Assembly: GCA_905188025.1 (NCBI GenBank)
Contig: CAJJKI010000002.1
Location: 78,181 to 142,180 of the forward strand
DNA: 64,000 nt
Direction: 5' to 3'
DNA from: an uncultured Eubacteriales bacterium
Lineage (GTDB): Bacteria; Bacillota_I; Bacilli_A; RF39; UBA660
Shown: in pieces, positions 38,008 to 41,550 of the stretch
How the letters are laid out: each line of letters opens with the position of its first letter
Numbering within the stretch: position 1 is the stretch's first letter
Made by a program: the position numbers and the translations under genes
The notes under the pieces: model-generated
Databases searched by the model: none
What the model was told of the DNA's origin: nothing
The model's input: only the letters and a program-made list of their open reading frames with translations

Positions 38008-38394
38008 TTAAAAATATGTTTTTTTTAATTTTTTTGACATTTTTTCATCATCAATTGAATGTATTGAATGATTTCCTAATTTACAGAAATTTCTTACTTC
38101 TTGTTTGATTTTTCTTACTTTGTTTTCTGTTGAAAAAACATAAAAAAGTTTCACAAAATTAATTTTACTATTAAAACAAGAATTCATTTTATATTTTATT
38201 CCTTCCCAATCATTATTGGCATTACCAATCCATGACTCTCCTTGATATAAAGTATAGATTAATCTAAATTTTTCTTTTTCGTCTAATTCTTTTTGCTTTT
38301 CATCAATAACTATTAAATTGTTTTTTATTAAATTTTCTATGAATTCCCAATTATCAAAACAAACTGGAAATAAAACCAACATATAATGTTGCAT
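38008..38394 (-). CDS. nucleoside-diphosphate-kinase-like fold protein (tentative)
   Basis: The C-terminus KLGNHSIHSIDDEKMSKKLKKTYF parallels NDK's [22 protein letters not shown], including the catalytic-His position. The N-terminus VLFPVCFDNWEFIENLIKNN parallels IMIKPDGV...I..F. The start is uncertain (ATG 38394 or TTG 38418). Confidence 0.4.
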   Translation of the reverse strand: MQHYMLVLFPVCFDNWEFIENLIKNNLIVIDEKQKELDEKEKFRLIYTLYQGESWIGNANNDWEGIKYKMNSCFNSKINFVKLFYVFSTENKVRKIKQEVRNFCKLGNHSIHSIDDEKMSKKLKKTYF

Positions 38395-38401
38395 ATTGTT
38401 A

Positions 38402-38920
38402 CTATTGTATAATCTCAATTATTTCAGCTGGAGATATACGTTCGACTCCAGTTATTGATTGAATTGCCATTTGATGAAAAACAAAAATAATACATTCATA
38501 ATTGCTATATTTCTTAATTACTCCTTGAATTCTTTTTTTCAAATGTTCTTTTGATTCCCAGTTTACTATTCTATCAACTGGTGGAATACCATTATTTTTA
38601 ATATAATCTTTATAATATTCTTTCATTTCTTTAGCCTTATATTGATATGTATTATCAGGTTCCCACTCTCTCAAATCAGGTTCTATTTTTATATCTAATC
38701 CTGTTTCTTTTGATATAATTGCAGCTGTTTGCAATGCCCTAGTATATGGTGAAGACACAATAAGTGTTGCTTCTTTTAAACGTGGATCTTTAGATGTCTT
38801 TATTACATCTTCAATGTACTCTTCATCTAATTTAGCCAAATCATGTCCATGTCCAATGAAATTATGGAAATCACCATAACTATAGTCTGCTTTACCATGT
38901 CGTATCATAAAAATTTTCAT
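38402..38920 (-). CDS. histidine phosphatase (phosphoglycerate-mutase-like) family protein
   Basis: MIRHGKADYS (RHG), SSPYTRALQTAAI and a distal FHQ His. AAGGAGA SD. Confidence 0.85.
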   Translation of the reverse strand: MKIFMIRHGKADYSYGDFHNFIGHGHDLAKLDEEYIEDVIKTSKDPRLKEATLIVSSPYTRALQTAAIISKETGLDIKIEPDLREWEPDNTYQYKAKEMKEYYKDYIKNNGIPPVDRIVNWESKEHLKKRIQGVIKKYSNYECIIFVFHQMAIQSITGVERISPAEIIEIIQ

Positions 38921-38924
38921 ATAT

Positions 38925-39518
38925 TCATCTCCTTAATTTTAATAGTTTGCATATATGCTCGCTAGCATACTCTTTATTTTTTCCAGTTGTGTCAATAAAC
39001 TCTTTTTTTGATTCTAATGTCATTATATCATAAAATTCGTTTTGATAAAATTCAAAATCATTTTTAATCCATTTACTTTGTAAAATTTTGTTTCTGCTTA
39101 GATTTCTTTTTAACTTTTCACTTGGATCTGCTGTTAAAATAAATGTTACATCCGGTTTAATATACCACGTTTGATCTATCATTTCTCTATATATTCTAAG
39201 TGCATTATCATAGCCGTTGTATTTATCTAATTTTAAAAAGGCATAGGAAACCGCCAAAATTGAAAGATAACTTCTTTCCATAAATACTATTTTATCATGT
39301 TTCAAAAATGATGATGCTAATATCATTCTCTCTTTCTCTATTTCGAAGAAAATTTGTTGATTTTTTAGTTCTTCTTCTATGTTCTTTGATGGTTTTGGTG
39401 ACAGTGGATGATCCATAAATTCCTCAATTATTTCGACATTAGGAATTTCATTCAAAATTTTTGATGTAGTAGTCTTGCCAGAATTAGATGTTCCCTCTAT
39501 CACATATAAATTTTTCAT
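38925..39518 (-). CDS. P-loop kinase, deoxynucleoside/nucleoside-monophosphate kinase-like
   Basis: IEGTSNSGKTTT Walker A, an ERSYLS..AVSYAF (DRS-like) segment, and a LID-like R/K-rich region KLKRNLSRNK. Confidence 0.6.
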   Translation of the reverse strand: MKNLYVIEGTSNSGKTTTSKILNEIPNVEIIEEFMDHPLSPKPSKNIEEELKNQQIFFEIEKERMILASSFLKHDKIVFMERSYLSILAVSYAFLKLDKYNGYDNALRIYREMIDQTWYIKPDVTFILTADPSEKLKRNLSRNKILQSKWIKNDFEFYQNEFYDIMTLESKKEFIDTTGKNKEYASEHICKLLKLRR

Positions 39519-39527
39519 TATATATCA

Positions 39528-40808
39528 CTACCTTTCTGTTTTATATTTTTTCATTTTAAAATTAAATATGGAATACAAAGGTCCTATATTAGATATAAAT
39601 GTTGAAATACAAGCAGCACATATTAGGCTTAATTTGTTATGGATTTTTTTATTTTCCAGTTTTTCAATAATTTTTATTGTACTTATATAAACGCATATTT
39701 GCATAAATGTATAGGAAAACATTGAAATTACAAGTAAAATAATACTTTTATAATATATACTAATTGCAAACGATAAAATAATAAAGAATGGTAACAATAG
39801 CCAGCTTAAATTCATACGAACTCTTTGAAAAAGCCAGTTTTTACATGAATTGGAAATTTTTTTATCTTTTTTTAAATTACTTTTTATCATCTTGATCCAT
39901 TGATTAGAAGTTTTATACCAATTAGCATTTTGTTTAATTAATACTGATATATTTTTTGGAGTTTCCATGTTTTCAAGACTTAAAACAGGAGTAATTTTAA
40001 TATTTCTGTTTCTAATAATTGAACTCATATATATGTCTTCACACCAAAATTTATTATCAAATCCTCCAACTTTTTTAAGTATGTCTAATCTAATATATAA
40101 TCCGTGTCCGACGACATAAGTATATAATAAATTTGAAAAAGTTAAAGAATTTATCAAGCCATACTTTATTTCAAAATTACTTTGATAAAGTGCAAATCCC
40201 TTCATGATAAATGAAAGATTTCCTAAATTACTAAATGCATAAGAATATTGCTGTATTATTTCTGGATAGTCTTGGCTTTTGATTATATTCAAGACACTAT
40301 TTATTGTGTCCAAGTTTGGTCTACTGTCTGCATTATATACACAAAAATATGTTTTTTTGCTATTATATTTTTTGTATTCCTTCATTACATAATTTAACTG
40401 ATCCGCCATTATTCCATCTTTATGTGGATAATGAAAAAGTTTAACTTTATTTATCTTATTTTCACTAATATATTCATTTACCACATCAAATGTTGTTTTA
40501 TTTCTTTTTTGCTTGTCCAATAATTGTTCATATTTTTCTTTTTCTGTTGTCACAATTATTAATTCTATATTATCTTTATCATTTATCAAATTCAAAAAGT
40601 AATCTATTGTTTCTTTTATAATGTTTTGTTCTCGTAAGCAAGGAATGATAATCAATATTTTACAATTTAAAAGTTTATTACTATTTTCATAGATTTTTAT
40701 ACTATTAATTTTTCTTTTTGCTATATATGTTTTCAATATATTCCAAAATGCGCATAAAATTTCTAGAATTATTATTATCCAATAACTTATTAACAATATA
40801 TCTTTCAT
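39528..40808 (-). CDS. integral-membrane family-2 glycosyltransferase (synthase-like)
   Basis: N-terminal TM segment. GT-A core with IIIPCLREQ, YNADS (DxD-like) and WCEDIYMS (ED motif). FQRVRM (compare QxxRW) is followed by several C-terminal TM segments. ATGA overlap with the upstream gene. Confidence 0.75.
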   Translation of the reverse strand: MKDILLISYWIIIILEILCAFWNILKTYIAKRKINSIKIYENSNKLLNCKILIIIPCLREQNIIKETIDYFLNLINDKDNIELIIVTTEKEKYEQLLDKQKRNKTTFDVVNEYISENKINKVKLFHYPHKDGIMADQLNYVMKEYKKYNSKKTYFCVYNADSRPNLDTINSVLNIIKSQDYPEIIQQYSYAFSNLGNLSFIMKGFALYQSNFEIKYGLINSLTFSNLLYTYVVGHGLYIRLDILKKVGGFDNKFWCEDIYMSSIIRNRNIKITPVLSLENMETPKNISVLIKQNANWYKTSNQWIKMIKSNLKKDKKISNSCKNWLFQRVRMNLSWLLLPFFIILSFAISIYYKSIILLVISMFSYTFMQICVYISTIKIIEKLENKKIHNKLSLICAACISTFISNIGPLYSIFNFKMKKYKTER

Positions 40809-41458
40809 AAATTCCATCCCTTTTCTTTTGCTAAATTATCAATTGCTACACAATAACTATCAATCATGCCACGATTAATAAAAAATTCTTTATCATATTT
40901 AGCATCTAGTAAGTCAAAAACCAAAAATGAAACTTTAATTTTGAGGTATAAACAAATGGCTAGTCGATGTGCACCATCAATTGGAATGCCTGTTTTACTT
41001 ATAGGTATTACGGTTGTGCTTAAACCTTTTGTTTTTATGGATTCAATTAATGTGTTAAAATTGTCAATAAAATCATCTGGGCTAGATTTACTGCCATCAG
41101 GCTCAAAAAAATTATTAAAGGCTTTAATATGGGATAAATATATTTTTTTAGCTAAGTCATAATTACTCTTTTCAATGTAACTTTTTACATAAAAATATTT
41201 TACATAGACATCATATCTGTAACGAGAGGTTAATTTTTCGGGGCTACATTCATATACATAATATTGTTTTCTTTTTTTTAGCAATGAATATATATAGTGA
41301 TTATTAATAAGTTTATTTGCAGCATTTTCGTCTACAATTTTGATTAATTTGCTATTTTTTATAGGACTCATATTAATGTCAGTAATAACTATATTGGAAC
41401 TATTATAAAATTTATCAAATATTATTTTCCCCATATTAGGTATTTCTTTCGTTTTCAT
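40805..41458 (-). CDS. hypothetical protein with ParB/Srx-like DGxHR motif (tentative)
   Basis: ...ISKTGIPIDGAHRLAICLYL resembles the ParB N-terminal/sulfiredoxin-fold nucleotide-binding signature. It is the first gene of the cargo operon. Confidence 0.35.
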   Translation of the reverse strand: MKTKEIPNMGKIIFDKFYNSSNIVITDINMSPIKNSKLIKIVDENAANKLINNHYIYSLLKKRKQYYVYECSPEKLTSRYRYDVYVKYFYVKSYIEKSNYDLAKKIYLSHIKAFNNFFEPDGSKSSPDDFIDNFNTLIESIKTKGLSTTVIPISKTGIPIDGAHRLAICLYLKIKVSFLVFDLLDAKYDKEFFINRGMIDSYCVAIDNLAKEKGWNL

Positions 41459-41521
41459 ACTTATTTATCACATCCAATATAAATATTTAATCAAGATGAT
41501 TTAAAACGTTTATTTGGAGGT

Positions 41522-41550
41522 AGTATACAATTTATATACAATTTTGTCAA
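41522..41550 (-). promoter_or_regulatory. near-consensus sigma-A promoter of the cargo operon
   Basis: On the minus strand, TTGACA, 17 nt spacer, TATACT. The spacer and -10 contain the direct repeat ATTGTATA twice. It lies about 60 nt upstream of the first cargo ATG. Confidence 0.55.

Follow-up and report, generated by a model that had tools for sequence, protein, structure and literature searches.

How should an operon be read that joins a putative membrane glycosyltransferase to a kinase, a phosphatase and two proteins which match no Pfam family? The question is raised by a locus in an uncultured gut bacterium, represented by a metagenome-assembled genome (MAG) of the low-G+C 'Bacilli'. A stretch of 64,000 nucleotides (nt) of this genome, termed the window, was analysed, and all coordinates refer to it. 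The operon is the cargo of an insertion of ~5.82 kb (35960..41778 plus one core copy) that splits a class-B penicillin-binding-protein gene, spoVD. The cargo appears to be a glycan operon on a mobile element, built around an uncharacterised enzyme family to which two of the five genes, g1 and g5, belong.

Five tightly packed open reading frames (ORFs) lie on the minus strand between 41458 and 38008, where the first-pass annotation of this DNA had placed them, and are preceded by a promoter-like site:

41458..40805, minus strand: g1, 217 amino acids (aa), with the motif IDGAHR
40817 (or 40808)..39528, minus strand: g2, 429 aa, putative membrane family-2 glycosyltransferase (GT2)
39518..38925, minus strand: g3, 197 aa, P-loop kinase, thymidylate-kinase- or deoxynucleoside-kinase-like
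38920..38402, minus strand: g4, 172 aa, histidine phosphatase of branch 1 (RHG)
38394 (or 38382)..38008, minus strand: g5, 128 or 124 aa, predicted nucleoside-diphosphate-kinase (NDK) fold, with the motif GNHSIHSID
41550..41522, minus strand: sigma-70-like promoter TTGACA-17-TATACT, matching at 11 of 12 positions

The five genes form one operon, as that annotation had proposed, with intergenic gaps of 9, 4 and 7 nt and, if g2 starts at 40808, an ATGA overlap with g1. The promoter it had named also stands. This is the top-scoring promoter-like site within 35800..41900; such sites number 49 in total against 50.9 expected from shuffling, so there is no excess of them. The promoter hexamers and their spacing are invariant across six related elements, in which the DNA upstream has diverged or been deleted, and this conservation is better evidence than the score of the site. 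The operon is conserved and separately promoted.

The guide to its function comes from the relatives of its first and last genes. As judged from profile comparisons, g1 and g5 correspond to the two halves, here encoded apart, of an enzyme that is usually a single polypeptide; this enzyme is widespread in polysaccharide loci and has no name. When 1.84 billion representative proteins (clusters at 50% identity) were searched with a g1 profile, 1667 representative relatives emerged, 965 of these at E up to 1e-10, and the majority are longer than g1. In 96 of the 149 top relatives a g5-like domain lies 10–20 residues after the g1 domain; of the 96 relatives among these 149 which are at least 420 aa long, 88 are fusions of g1 and g5. 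Alignment of g5 with two of the fused proteins by hhalign gave a probability of 96.7% (E 4.5e-10) for P0167 and of 94.8% (E 4.9e-8) for P0173. Further domains fused to the pair elsewhere in the family include Glycos_transf_2, Glyco_transf_10, the FkbM methyltransferase and Sulfotransfer_2. All five of the fused-protein contexts examined are polysaccharide loci:

L045: Bac_transf, GT2, GT4, WecG and epimerases
L049: P0173, immediately downstream of wzm and wzt (with the Wzt_C cap-binding domain)
L050: a 1310-aa protein comprising GT10, FkbM, g1, g5 and GT2
L054: exopolysaccharide (EPS) locus of Ilyobacter polytropus, with GDP-fucose genes, FkbM and several glycosyltransferases
L055: Jannaschia plasmid locus, with GT4 and sulfotransferase genes

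A standalone relative of g1 likewise adjoins genes for Acyl_transf_3, GT4 and a GtrII-like transferase. The family has escaped naming: its fused members in the L054 and L055 records are labelled 'hypothetical protein' in RefSeq, no Pfam (E up to 10) or NCBIfam model matches any of its domains, a search of P0167 against PDB sequences found nothing, and no paper on a glycan enzyme combining ParB/sulfiredoxin (Srx) and NDK folds was found in the literature searched. Its members nevertheless make up at least 1667 clusters at 50% identity, occur in many phyla in loci for O-antigen, capsule and EPS, and seem to put to a new use two nucleotide-binding folds, ParB/Srx and NDK, that had no earlier link to glycan synthesis. 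Its reaction, once known, would help to predict surface-polysaccharide structures from genomes.

The fused proteins carry a third domain of ~190 residues (about 300–489 in P0167) with a G-S-x10-D-L-D signature and invariant K..R..D..D. It is probably a nucleotidyltransferase fold, to judge by its single weak match in PDB, to a nucleotidyltransferase at E 0.21. No counterpart of this GS..DLD domain was found among the proteins of the window, and there is no Pfam model for it either. In P0173 the domain order is g1, g5, third domain, FkbM methyltransferase. A fused protein of g1, g5 and the third domain was also seen in a MAG labelled Gammaproteobacteria (L044, 1712..2998), the sole fused form to come from a genome scan with a Firmicute profile.

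Neither g1 nor g5 matches a model in Pfam (E up to 10, ParBc included in the case of g1), NCBIfam or PADLOC, and PHROGs gave nothing convincing for either; the kinship of both proteins with known folds was sought in structure. More than 321 close homologues of g1 exist, every one unannotated, and D161, G162, H164 and R165 are invariant among 32 of them. An AlphaFold2 model of g1 built from these 32 homologues (mean predicted local distance difference test score, pLDDT, 88.7) places the DGxHR motif at the junction between a strand (151–154) and a helix (163–172). The top PDB matches of this model in Foldseek are ParB N-domains, namely 5k5d (E 0.03, probability 0.92), 7bm8 and 8qa9, and its matches among predicted viral structures (BFVD) are almost all annotated as ParB/sulfiredoxin. 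The g1 protein keeps DGxHR at the position that it has in ParB/sulfiredoxin proteins, with a weak but consistent resemblance in fold, and it differs from them in having an extra N-terminal half of ~120 residues that matches nothing, and in being undetected by the Pfam models. A profile of g1 met only chance matches to utrophin among PDB sequences.

For g5, an AlphaFold2 model with a pLDDT of 88.2 was compared with PDB in Foldseek, and nearly all of the 50 best matches are nucleoside-diphosphate kinases (query-normalised template-modelling score, TMq, 0.55–0.63; probability 0.9–0.98). Across 27 diverse members of the g5 family, P6, Y46, W51, K93, R97, H108 and D111 are invariant. The first-pass annotation had likened NHSIHSID to the NIIHGSD of NDK, and the histidine it aligned, H108, is the invariant one. 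Since this invariance extends over the wider family, the second histidine of HSIH is taken to be the conserved one. Compared in sequence, without residue-level superposition, the g5 motif N-HSI-H-S-x-D is one residue longer than the NDK motif NxxHGSD. The protein thus has the predicted fold of NDK and keeps a conserved histidine in an N..H.S/T.D context, but it differs from NDK in apparently having, by eye, LFP in place of the K-P-D start of NDK. The guesses that g1 is ParB/sulfiredoxin-like and g5 NDK-like were both borne out at the level of fold only, and in the models and Foldseek searches neither protein fell into an unrelated fold.

The glycosyltransferase g2 just passes the Pfam cutoff for Glyco_trans_2_3 (E 1.3e-6; 28.8 bits against 27). 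An alignment of 16 homologues sharing 35–88% identity defines the invariant motifs IPC..E, TT.KE, YP..G.MA.QLN, YNADS.P, QQYS, VVGHG..IR.D, WCEDI and QN..W..T. The GT-A motifs are present among them, with N162, A163, D164, S165 and C259, E260, D261 all invariant, and a Q..W motif, QNANW (296–300; Q296 and W300 invariant), lies 36 residues past the invariant ED. Hydropathy predicts one N-terminal membrane segment (3–33) and about three at the C-terminus (within about 333–379 and 396–414). By these motifs, g2 is a predicted membrane-integrated family-2 glycosyltransferase with catalytic motifs of the D, ED and Q..W type. Of the three motifs that the first-pass annotation had singled out, NAD and ED were upheld as invariant, whilst QRVRM was not. 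QRVRM (331–335) was rejected as the Q..RW motif, being unconserved (HELRA in the type C modules described below) and sited where a predicted membrane segment begins. The size and layout of g2 recall those of single-protein synthase-exporters such as HasA, Cps3S, NodC and IcaA. This resemblance to small synthase-exporters leaves processivity and substrate putative.

Of the two remaining enzymes, g3 exceeds the Pfam cutoff for Thymidylate_kin (E 1.6e-7; 31.6 bits against 27), also matches dNK (E 5.6e-6) and AAA_28, and contains the motifs GTSNSGKTT and ERS. Its match to the NCBIfam dTMP kinase TIGR00041, at 37.9 bits, falls below the cutoff of 83.25, and g3 was rejected as a true Tmk on this equivalog criterion; its PDB sequence match is 3ld9, at E 0.027. 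The g4 protein matches His_Phos_1 well above cutoff (E 1.1e-17; 64.8 bits against 21.7), with MIRHGKA at residues 5–11. No NCBIfam equivalog cutoff was reached for g4, and its best PDB sequence matches, glucosyl-3-phosphoglycerate phosphatase and phosphoglycerate mutase, are weak (E 0.004). The original descriptions of g3 as a kinase of the deoxynucleoside or nucleoside-monophosphate type and of g4 as an RHG histidine phosphatase agree with these matches.

A survey of gene neighbourhoods was made in which 55 loci were fetched and linkage was judged only where the DNA was long enough to show the neighbours. Three architectures emerged across MAGs of gut Firmicutes:

Type A: g1, GT2, kinase, His_Phos_1 and g5; found in the window element and in L009–L016, invariably at the same spoVD site
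Type B: g1, GT2 and kinase (in two reading frames), then His_Phos_1 or an S-adenosylmethionine (SAM) methyltransferase
Type C: g1, sometimes Vut_1, then Nuc_deoxyrib_tr, kinase and a PHP phosphoesterase, with GT2 on the opposite strand and sometimes NUDIX

Of about 40 sufficiently long g1-bearing loci scanned, all but L024 have g1 together with GT2 and the kinase, in three gene orders, and the linkage of g1 with GT2 holds over about 45–95% identity. The constant core is thus g1, GT2 and the kinase related to deoxynucleoside kinases (dNK) and thymidylate kinases (TMPK). A phosphatase is present in most complete copies, with a methyltransferase instead in L001–L004, and it is of two unrelated folds, His_Phos_1 or, in type C, PHP. 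This swap of non-homologous enzymes suggests that the phosphatase step matters. The co-occurrence of the gene set beyond the window, on which the first-pass annotation had staked its reading of the operon, therefore holds for the core, mostly for the phosphatase and, for g5, in type A only.

The type A gene set also occurs, without a recombinase, at another site (L005–L008). Directly after the operon in these loci stand two paralogous cysteine-rich proteins of 188 and 208 aa with no Pfam match (11442..12691 in L005), and a 247-aa ORF upstream of it resembles the C-terminal remnant of a serine recombinase. In type B, the kinase is split at the same place, about residue 108, in L001, L003, L004, L018–L022, L025 and L043 (for example 12158..12743 in L018), which could reflect a split gene, a shared pseudogene or a programmed frameshift. 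Type C often adjoins one or two serine recombinases, and its additional enzymes are clearly matched (Vut_1, E 3e-47; Nuc_deoxyrib_tr, E 4e-20). A tight sub-module of Vut_1 (YhhQ-like), nucleoside 2-deoxyribosyltransferase, dNK-like kinase and PHP, sometimes with NUDIX, was observed in L023 (10621..13287), L052 (3686..6307) and L053 (9121..12164), with g1 and GT2 adjoining in every case. No description of a module of YhhQ, deoxyribosyltransferase and kinase was found in the literature searched.

Taken together with the glycan loci of the fused relatives, these features give what we consider an even chance that the operon makes or decorates a cell-envelope glycan or glycolipid. Of the roles first suggested for the operon, a surface glycan is the one favoured. 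In such a scheme the sigma-70-type promoter of the operon would drive its transcription in vegetative cells. The g1 and g5 proteins would together carry out a nucleotide-dependent phosphotransfer via the invariant His108, by analogy with the kinase half of WbdD-type chain-capping enzymes. The kinase g3 and phosphatase g4 might regenerate or supply a nucleotide donor; alternatively, kinase, glycosyltransferase and phosphatase might act in that sequence on a phosphorylated acceptor. A bolder proposal, which we put forward tentatively and hold to be possible rather than probable, is that g1 plus g5, usually fused and joined to the third domain, constitute a new and widespread class of glycan-modifying phosphotransferase, with a phosphohistidine at His108, and a non-homologous counterpart of WbdD. 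On this proposal the enzyme would have been split in gut Firmicutes, where mobile elements combine it with nucleoside-handling enzymes and a membrane GT2; one such element has the active-site codons of spoVD as its attachment site.

Known systems offer partial parallels. The fused protein P0173 resembles WbdD-type O-antigen chain terminators in lying beside wzm–wzt with Wzt_C and in uniting a putative phosphotransfer module with a methyltransferase. The kinase of WbdD has a protein-kinase-like fold, whereas the putative phosphotransfer module of P0173 is of ParB/Srx-like and NDK-like folds, and the window operon differs from WbdD loci in having neither ABC transporter nor methyltransferase. 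Synthase-dependent operons (hasABC, cps3DSUM and icaADBC) share with it the plan of a single membrane GT2 of ~420–440 aa, which has one membrane helix at its N-terminus and a group of them at its C-terminus, encoded with a few nucleotide-precursor enzymes. The accessory enzymes in the window operon, by contrast, are not UDP-sugar dehydrogenases or pyrophosphorylases, and QNANW stands in place of Q(Q/R)xRW. The Gtr serotype-conversion clusters and prophage TarP resemble the present case in that a glycosyltransferase is the cargo of an integrated element, and a GtrII-like gene accompanies a g1 relative. The window element differs in having no GtrA/GtrB pair and no phage, whilst the Gtr clusters and TarP have no counterpart of the ParB/Srx-like, NDK-like, kinase and phosphatase genes.

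Several observations weigh against a glycan function, or against the enzyme assignments on which it is built. The genes of the element include no flippase, polymerase, ABC exporter or sugar-nucleotide synthesis gene. The glycosyltransferase lacks the arginine of Q(Q/R)xRW and has no relative among PDB sequences, whether searched singly or as a profile. The fold matches of g1 are consistent but weak (E 0.01–0.1; template-modelling score, TM, about 0.2 over 50–100 residues), because only a core of 50–100 residues around DGAHR matches. A wide g5 profile found no NDK among PDB sequences, which leaves the link between the two at the level of fold only, and no g5-like domain was found in the type B and type C modules. 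Finally, the dNK/TMPK-like kinase, together with the Vut_1 and deoxyribosyltransferase of type C, lies outside ordinary glycan pathways and points to a nucleoside substrate; standard glycan pathways do not account for these partners.

It is these nucleoside-handling partners that give the principal competing explanation its appeal. The operon could make a secreted nucleoside-derived small molecule, the kinase acting on a (deoxy)nucleoside, GT2 glycosylating and perhaps exporting the product and the phosphatase dephosphorylating it, with the same logic of kinase, glycosyltransferase and phosphatase as in the trehalose-6-phosphate or glucosyl-3-phosphoglycerate pathways. The dNK/TMPK-like character of g3, with its ERS motif, the non-homologous replacement of the phosphatase and the weak top PDB match of g4 to glucosyl-3-phosphoglycerate phosphatase would all fit. 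So would type C with its Vut_1, Nuc_deoxyrib_tr, PHP and occasional NUDIX, where the transporter and deoxyribosyltransferase would supply the nucleoside; no other reading makes use of Vut_1 and the deoxyribosyltransferase. Yet the wider g1/g5 family resides in classical polysaccharide loci without nucleoside enzymes, the window operon has neither a transporter nor a deoxyribosyltransferase, and no case is known to us in which a multi-pass membrane GT2 uses a nucleotide as its acceptor. We regard a small-molecule product as unlikely on this balance. The same enzymes, and the carriage of the operon on small integrative elements with serine recombinases, might instead suggest defence against phages, with nucleotides being depleted or modified on infection or the phage receptor being masked. 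Two of the loci, L009 and L012, have an AbiEii gene in the vicinity, and g3 has weak, generic P-loop matches in PADLOC, to PDC-M51B and VakA (E about 0.002). PADLOC-DB 2.0 nevertheless yields no convincing match, with nothing at all for g1, g2, g4 and g5; the operon encodes no nuclease, sensor or toxin domain; relatives of g1 are absent from IMG/VR, INPHARED and GenBank phage records; and in polysaccharide loci on chromosomes g1 and g5 occur joined to glycan enzymes. The masking of a receptor would in any case fall under the glycan explanation, and mobility apart there is no positive evidence for defence, a role suggested at the outset but not supported here, which we place slightly below the small molecule in likelihood.

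Less probable again is nucleotide salvage for an auxotrophic host of reduced genome, in which g1 would be a ParB-type regulator or maintenance protein sharing no pathway with GT2. Nucleoside 2-deoxyribosyltransferase and dNK form the classical deoxynucleoside-salvage pair, the hosts are gut MAGs of small genome size (L039 is a chromosome of 1.57 Mb), and the fold of g1 is ParB-like. In conflict with this stand the linkage of g1 to GT2 across about 45–95% identity and three gene orders, the score of g3 below the Tmk equivalog cutoff and the absence from g5 of the usual NDK sequence signature. A partition or regulatory function of g1 is itself unlikely, as no helix-turn-helix or other DNA-binding domain was detected in it and most of its family occurs in non-mobile loci, fused to enzymes that modify glycans. 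The location of the element in spoVD raises the further thought of a role for the cargo in sporulation, perhaps directed at a glycan of the spore surface or one associated with the cortex, and of a functional tie to spoVD. Here the insertion of SP-beta in spsM provides a precedent for rearrangement of a spore-polysaccharide gene (PMC4191935), and the copy without a recombinase (L005–L008) is followed by the two cysteine-rich paralogues. This idea, to which we assign the lowest likelihood of all, has to contend with the conserved promoter of vegetative sigma-70 type, with the presence of the same module at unrelated chromosomal sites, and with the consequence that excision would remove the operon from the mother-cell chromosome exactly when SpoVD is needed.

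Whatever the product, the glycan operon favoured here is carried by an element whose remaining features, listed in the order in which they are met on the minus strand, are as follows:

42659..41779, minus strand: 5' part of spoVD, 305 codons, ending ...YEPGSTF; PBP_dimer and the start of Transpeptidase
41780-41779: attL core AA
37951..37927, minus strand: invariant CATACACT (37951..37944) and a hairpin over the GGAGGTG ribosome-binding site of the 52-aa ORF
37762..37920, minus strand: 52-aa ORF just upstream of the recombinase gene, candidate recombination directionality factor (RDF)
36020..37750, minus strand: large serine recombinase, 576 aa; Resolvase, Recombinase and Zn_ribbon_recom; phrog_95 integrase, E 1.8e-107
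36001..36025, minus strand: terminator-like hairpin after the recombinase gene
35959-35958: attR core AA
35959..34931, minus strand: 3' part of spoVD, resuming K-IITLASS...; Transpeptidase and PASTA

The insertion lies in the codons for the SxxK active site of spoVD (STF|K). When the two parts are joined, the resulting 635-aa ORF exceeds the cutoff of TIGR02214 spoVD_pbp (712.8 bits against 688). The 3' part is followed by mraY and by a spoVE/ftsW gene (445.7 on spoVE, cutoff 448.8; 402.8 on ftsW, cutoff 337.5). A public protein of 635 aa, P0306, is 100% identical to this in silico excision product, and its 3.7-kb contig, L048, is a natural empty site matching the window at 42763..41779 (99.8%) and 35963..33282 (99.4%). 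The empty site fixes the crossover at the AA dinucleotide, the size of the element at ~5.82 kb and attB as GGTAGTACCTTT-AA-AATAATCACC. From this we infer that attP is an imperfect palindrome, ...TTTCGGAGGTTATTTTC-AA-TGTTGTACTACCCGAAAGC.... A search for the attP pattern in JGI metagenome contigs gave 0 matches, a weak negative because excised circles are rarely assembled. The L048 contig shows that the spoVD site exists unoccupied, which bears on the site and not on whether excision happens.

The 52-aa ORF stands next to the recombinase gene in all related elements and is 79–98% conserved, with weak SHOCT-like matches only. It is close in size to CD1234, the 53-aa RDF of the C. difficile skin element (PMC10747680). 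Both CATACACT and the hairpin overlapping the ribosome-binding site are kept in six elements. The hairpin at 37948..37927 was considered as a clean terminator and rejected in view of its overlap with the ribosome-binding site of the gene that follows. As for CATACACT, it resembles, by the sigma-E/K consensus, the –10 element of mother-cell sigma factors, a tentative reading.

Its G+C content, 24.5% against 28.7% in the flanks, sets the element apart from its surroundings, and so does its history. Element proteins in related MAGs (L013–L016) are 84–98% identical to those of the window, whereas the flanking SpoVD and MraY are only 55–70% identical in three of the four species (L013–L015). The element has thus moved horizontally into the same codon of diverged hosts, which implies that this spread has been recent, although the element has no transfer genes. 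Its hosts include gut species with SpoVD proteins sharing only 55–65% identity, and if its cargo alters the cell surface it would constitute a mobile surface-variation trait in abundant uncultured spore formers of the human gut.

It is in model species, and not in this host, that spoVD is known to be expressed in the mother cell. Elements that interrupt sporulation genes have been described in sigK (skin), spsM (SP-beta), spoVFB (vfbin), spoVR (vrin), gerE (gin) and yabG (yin) (PMC5595907, PMC10747680, PMC4191935), and no paper on one in spoVD was found in the searchable literature. The present element resembles them in several respects: it lies within the ORF of a sporulation gene expressed, in model species, in the mother cell; a large serine recombinase is encoded at one end beside an ORF of RDF-like size; and precise excision restores the ORF, in silico in this instance, with a natural empty site known. 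It differs from them in its target, the SxxK codons. Like gin it is small (5.8 kb) and without phage genes, but its metabolic operon of five genes sets it apart from gin. By analogy we infer excision during sporulation, in which the recombinase and the 52-aa protein would cut the element out of the mother-cell chromosome and so restore spoVD. The element is apparently a further sporulation gene-intervening element with an undescribed target, and spoVD, cut exactly at its catalytic SxxK codons, may thus join the short list of genes rearranged in this way.

Two minor observations concern spoVD and its host. In L009 (13513..16654), L012 (10185..13326) and L013 (15521..20651), the 3' part of spoVD ends again after 56–120 codons and is followed by genes unrelated to it, either a 581-aa ORF and AbiEii or sensor-kinase genes; this second break could be a second insertion or a misassembly. 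On the contig of the window itself, a gene for the spore-coat protein Coat_F lies on the plus strand at about 24239..24562, and together with SpoVD and the SpoVE-like gene it supports the view that the host is a spore former.

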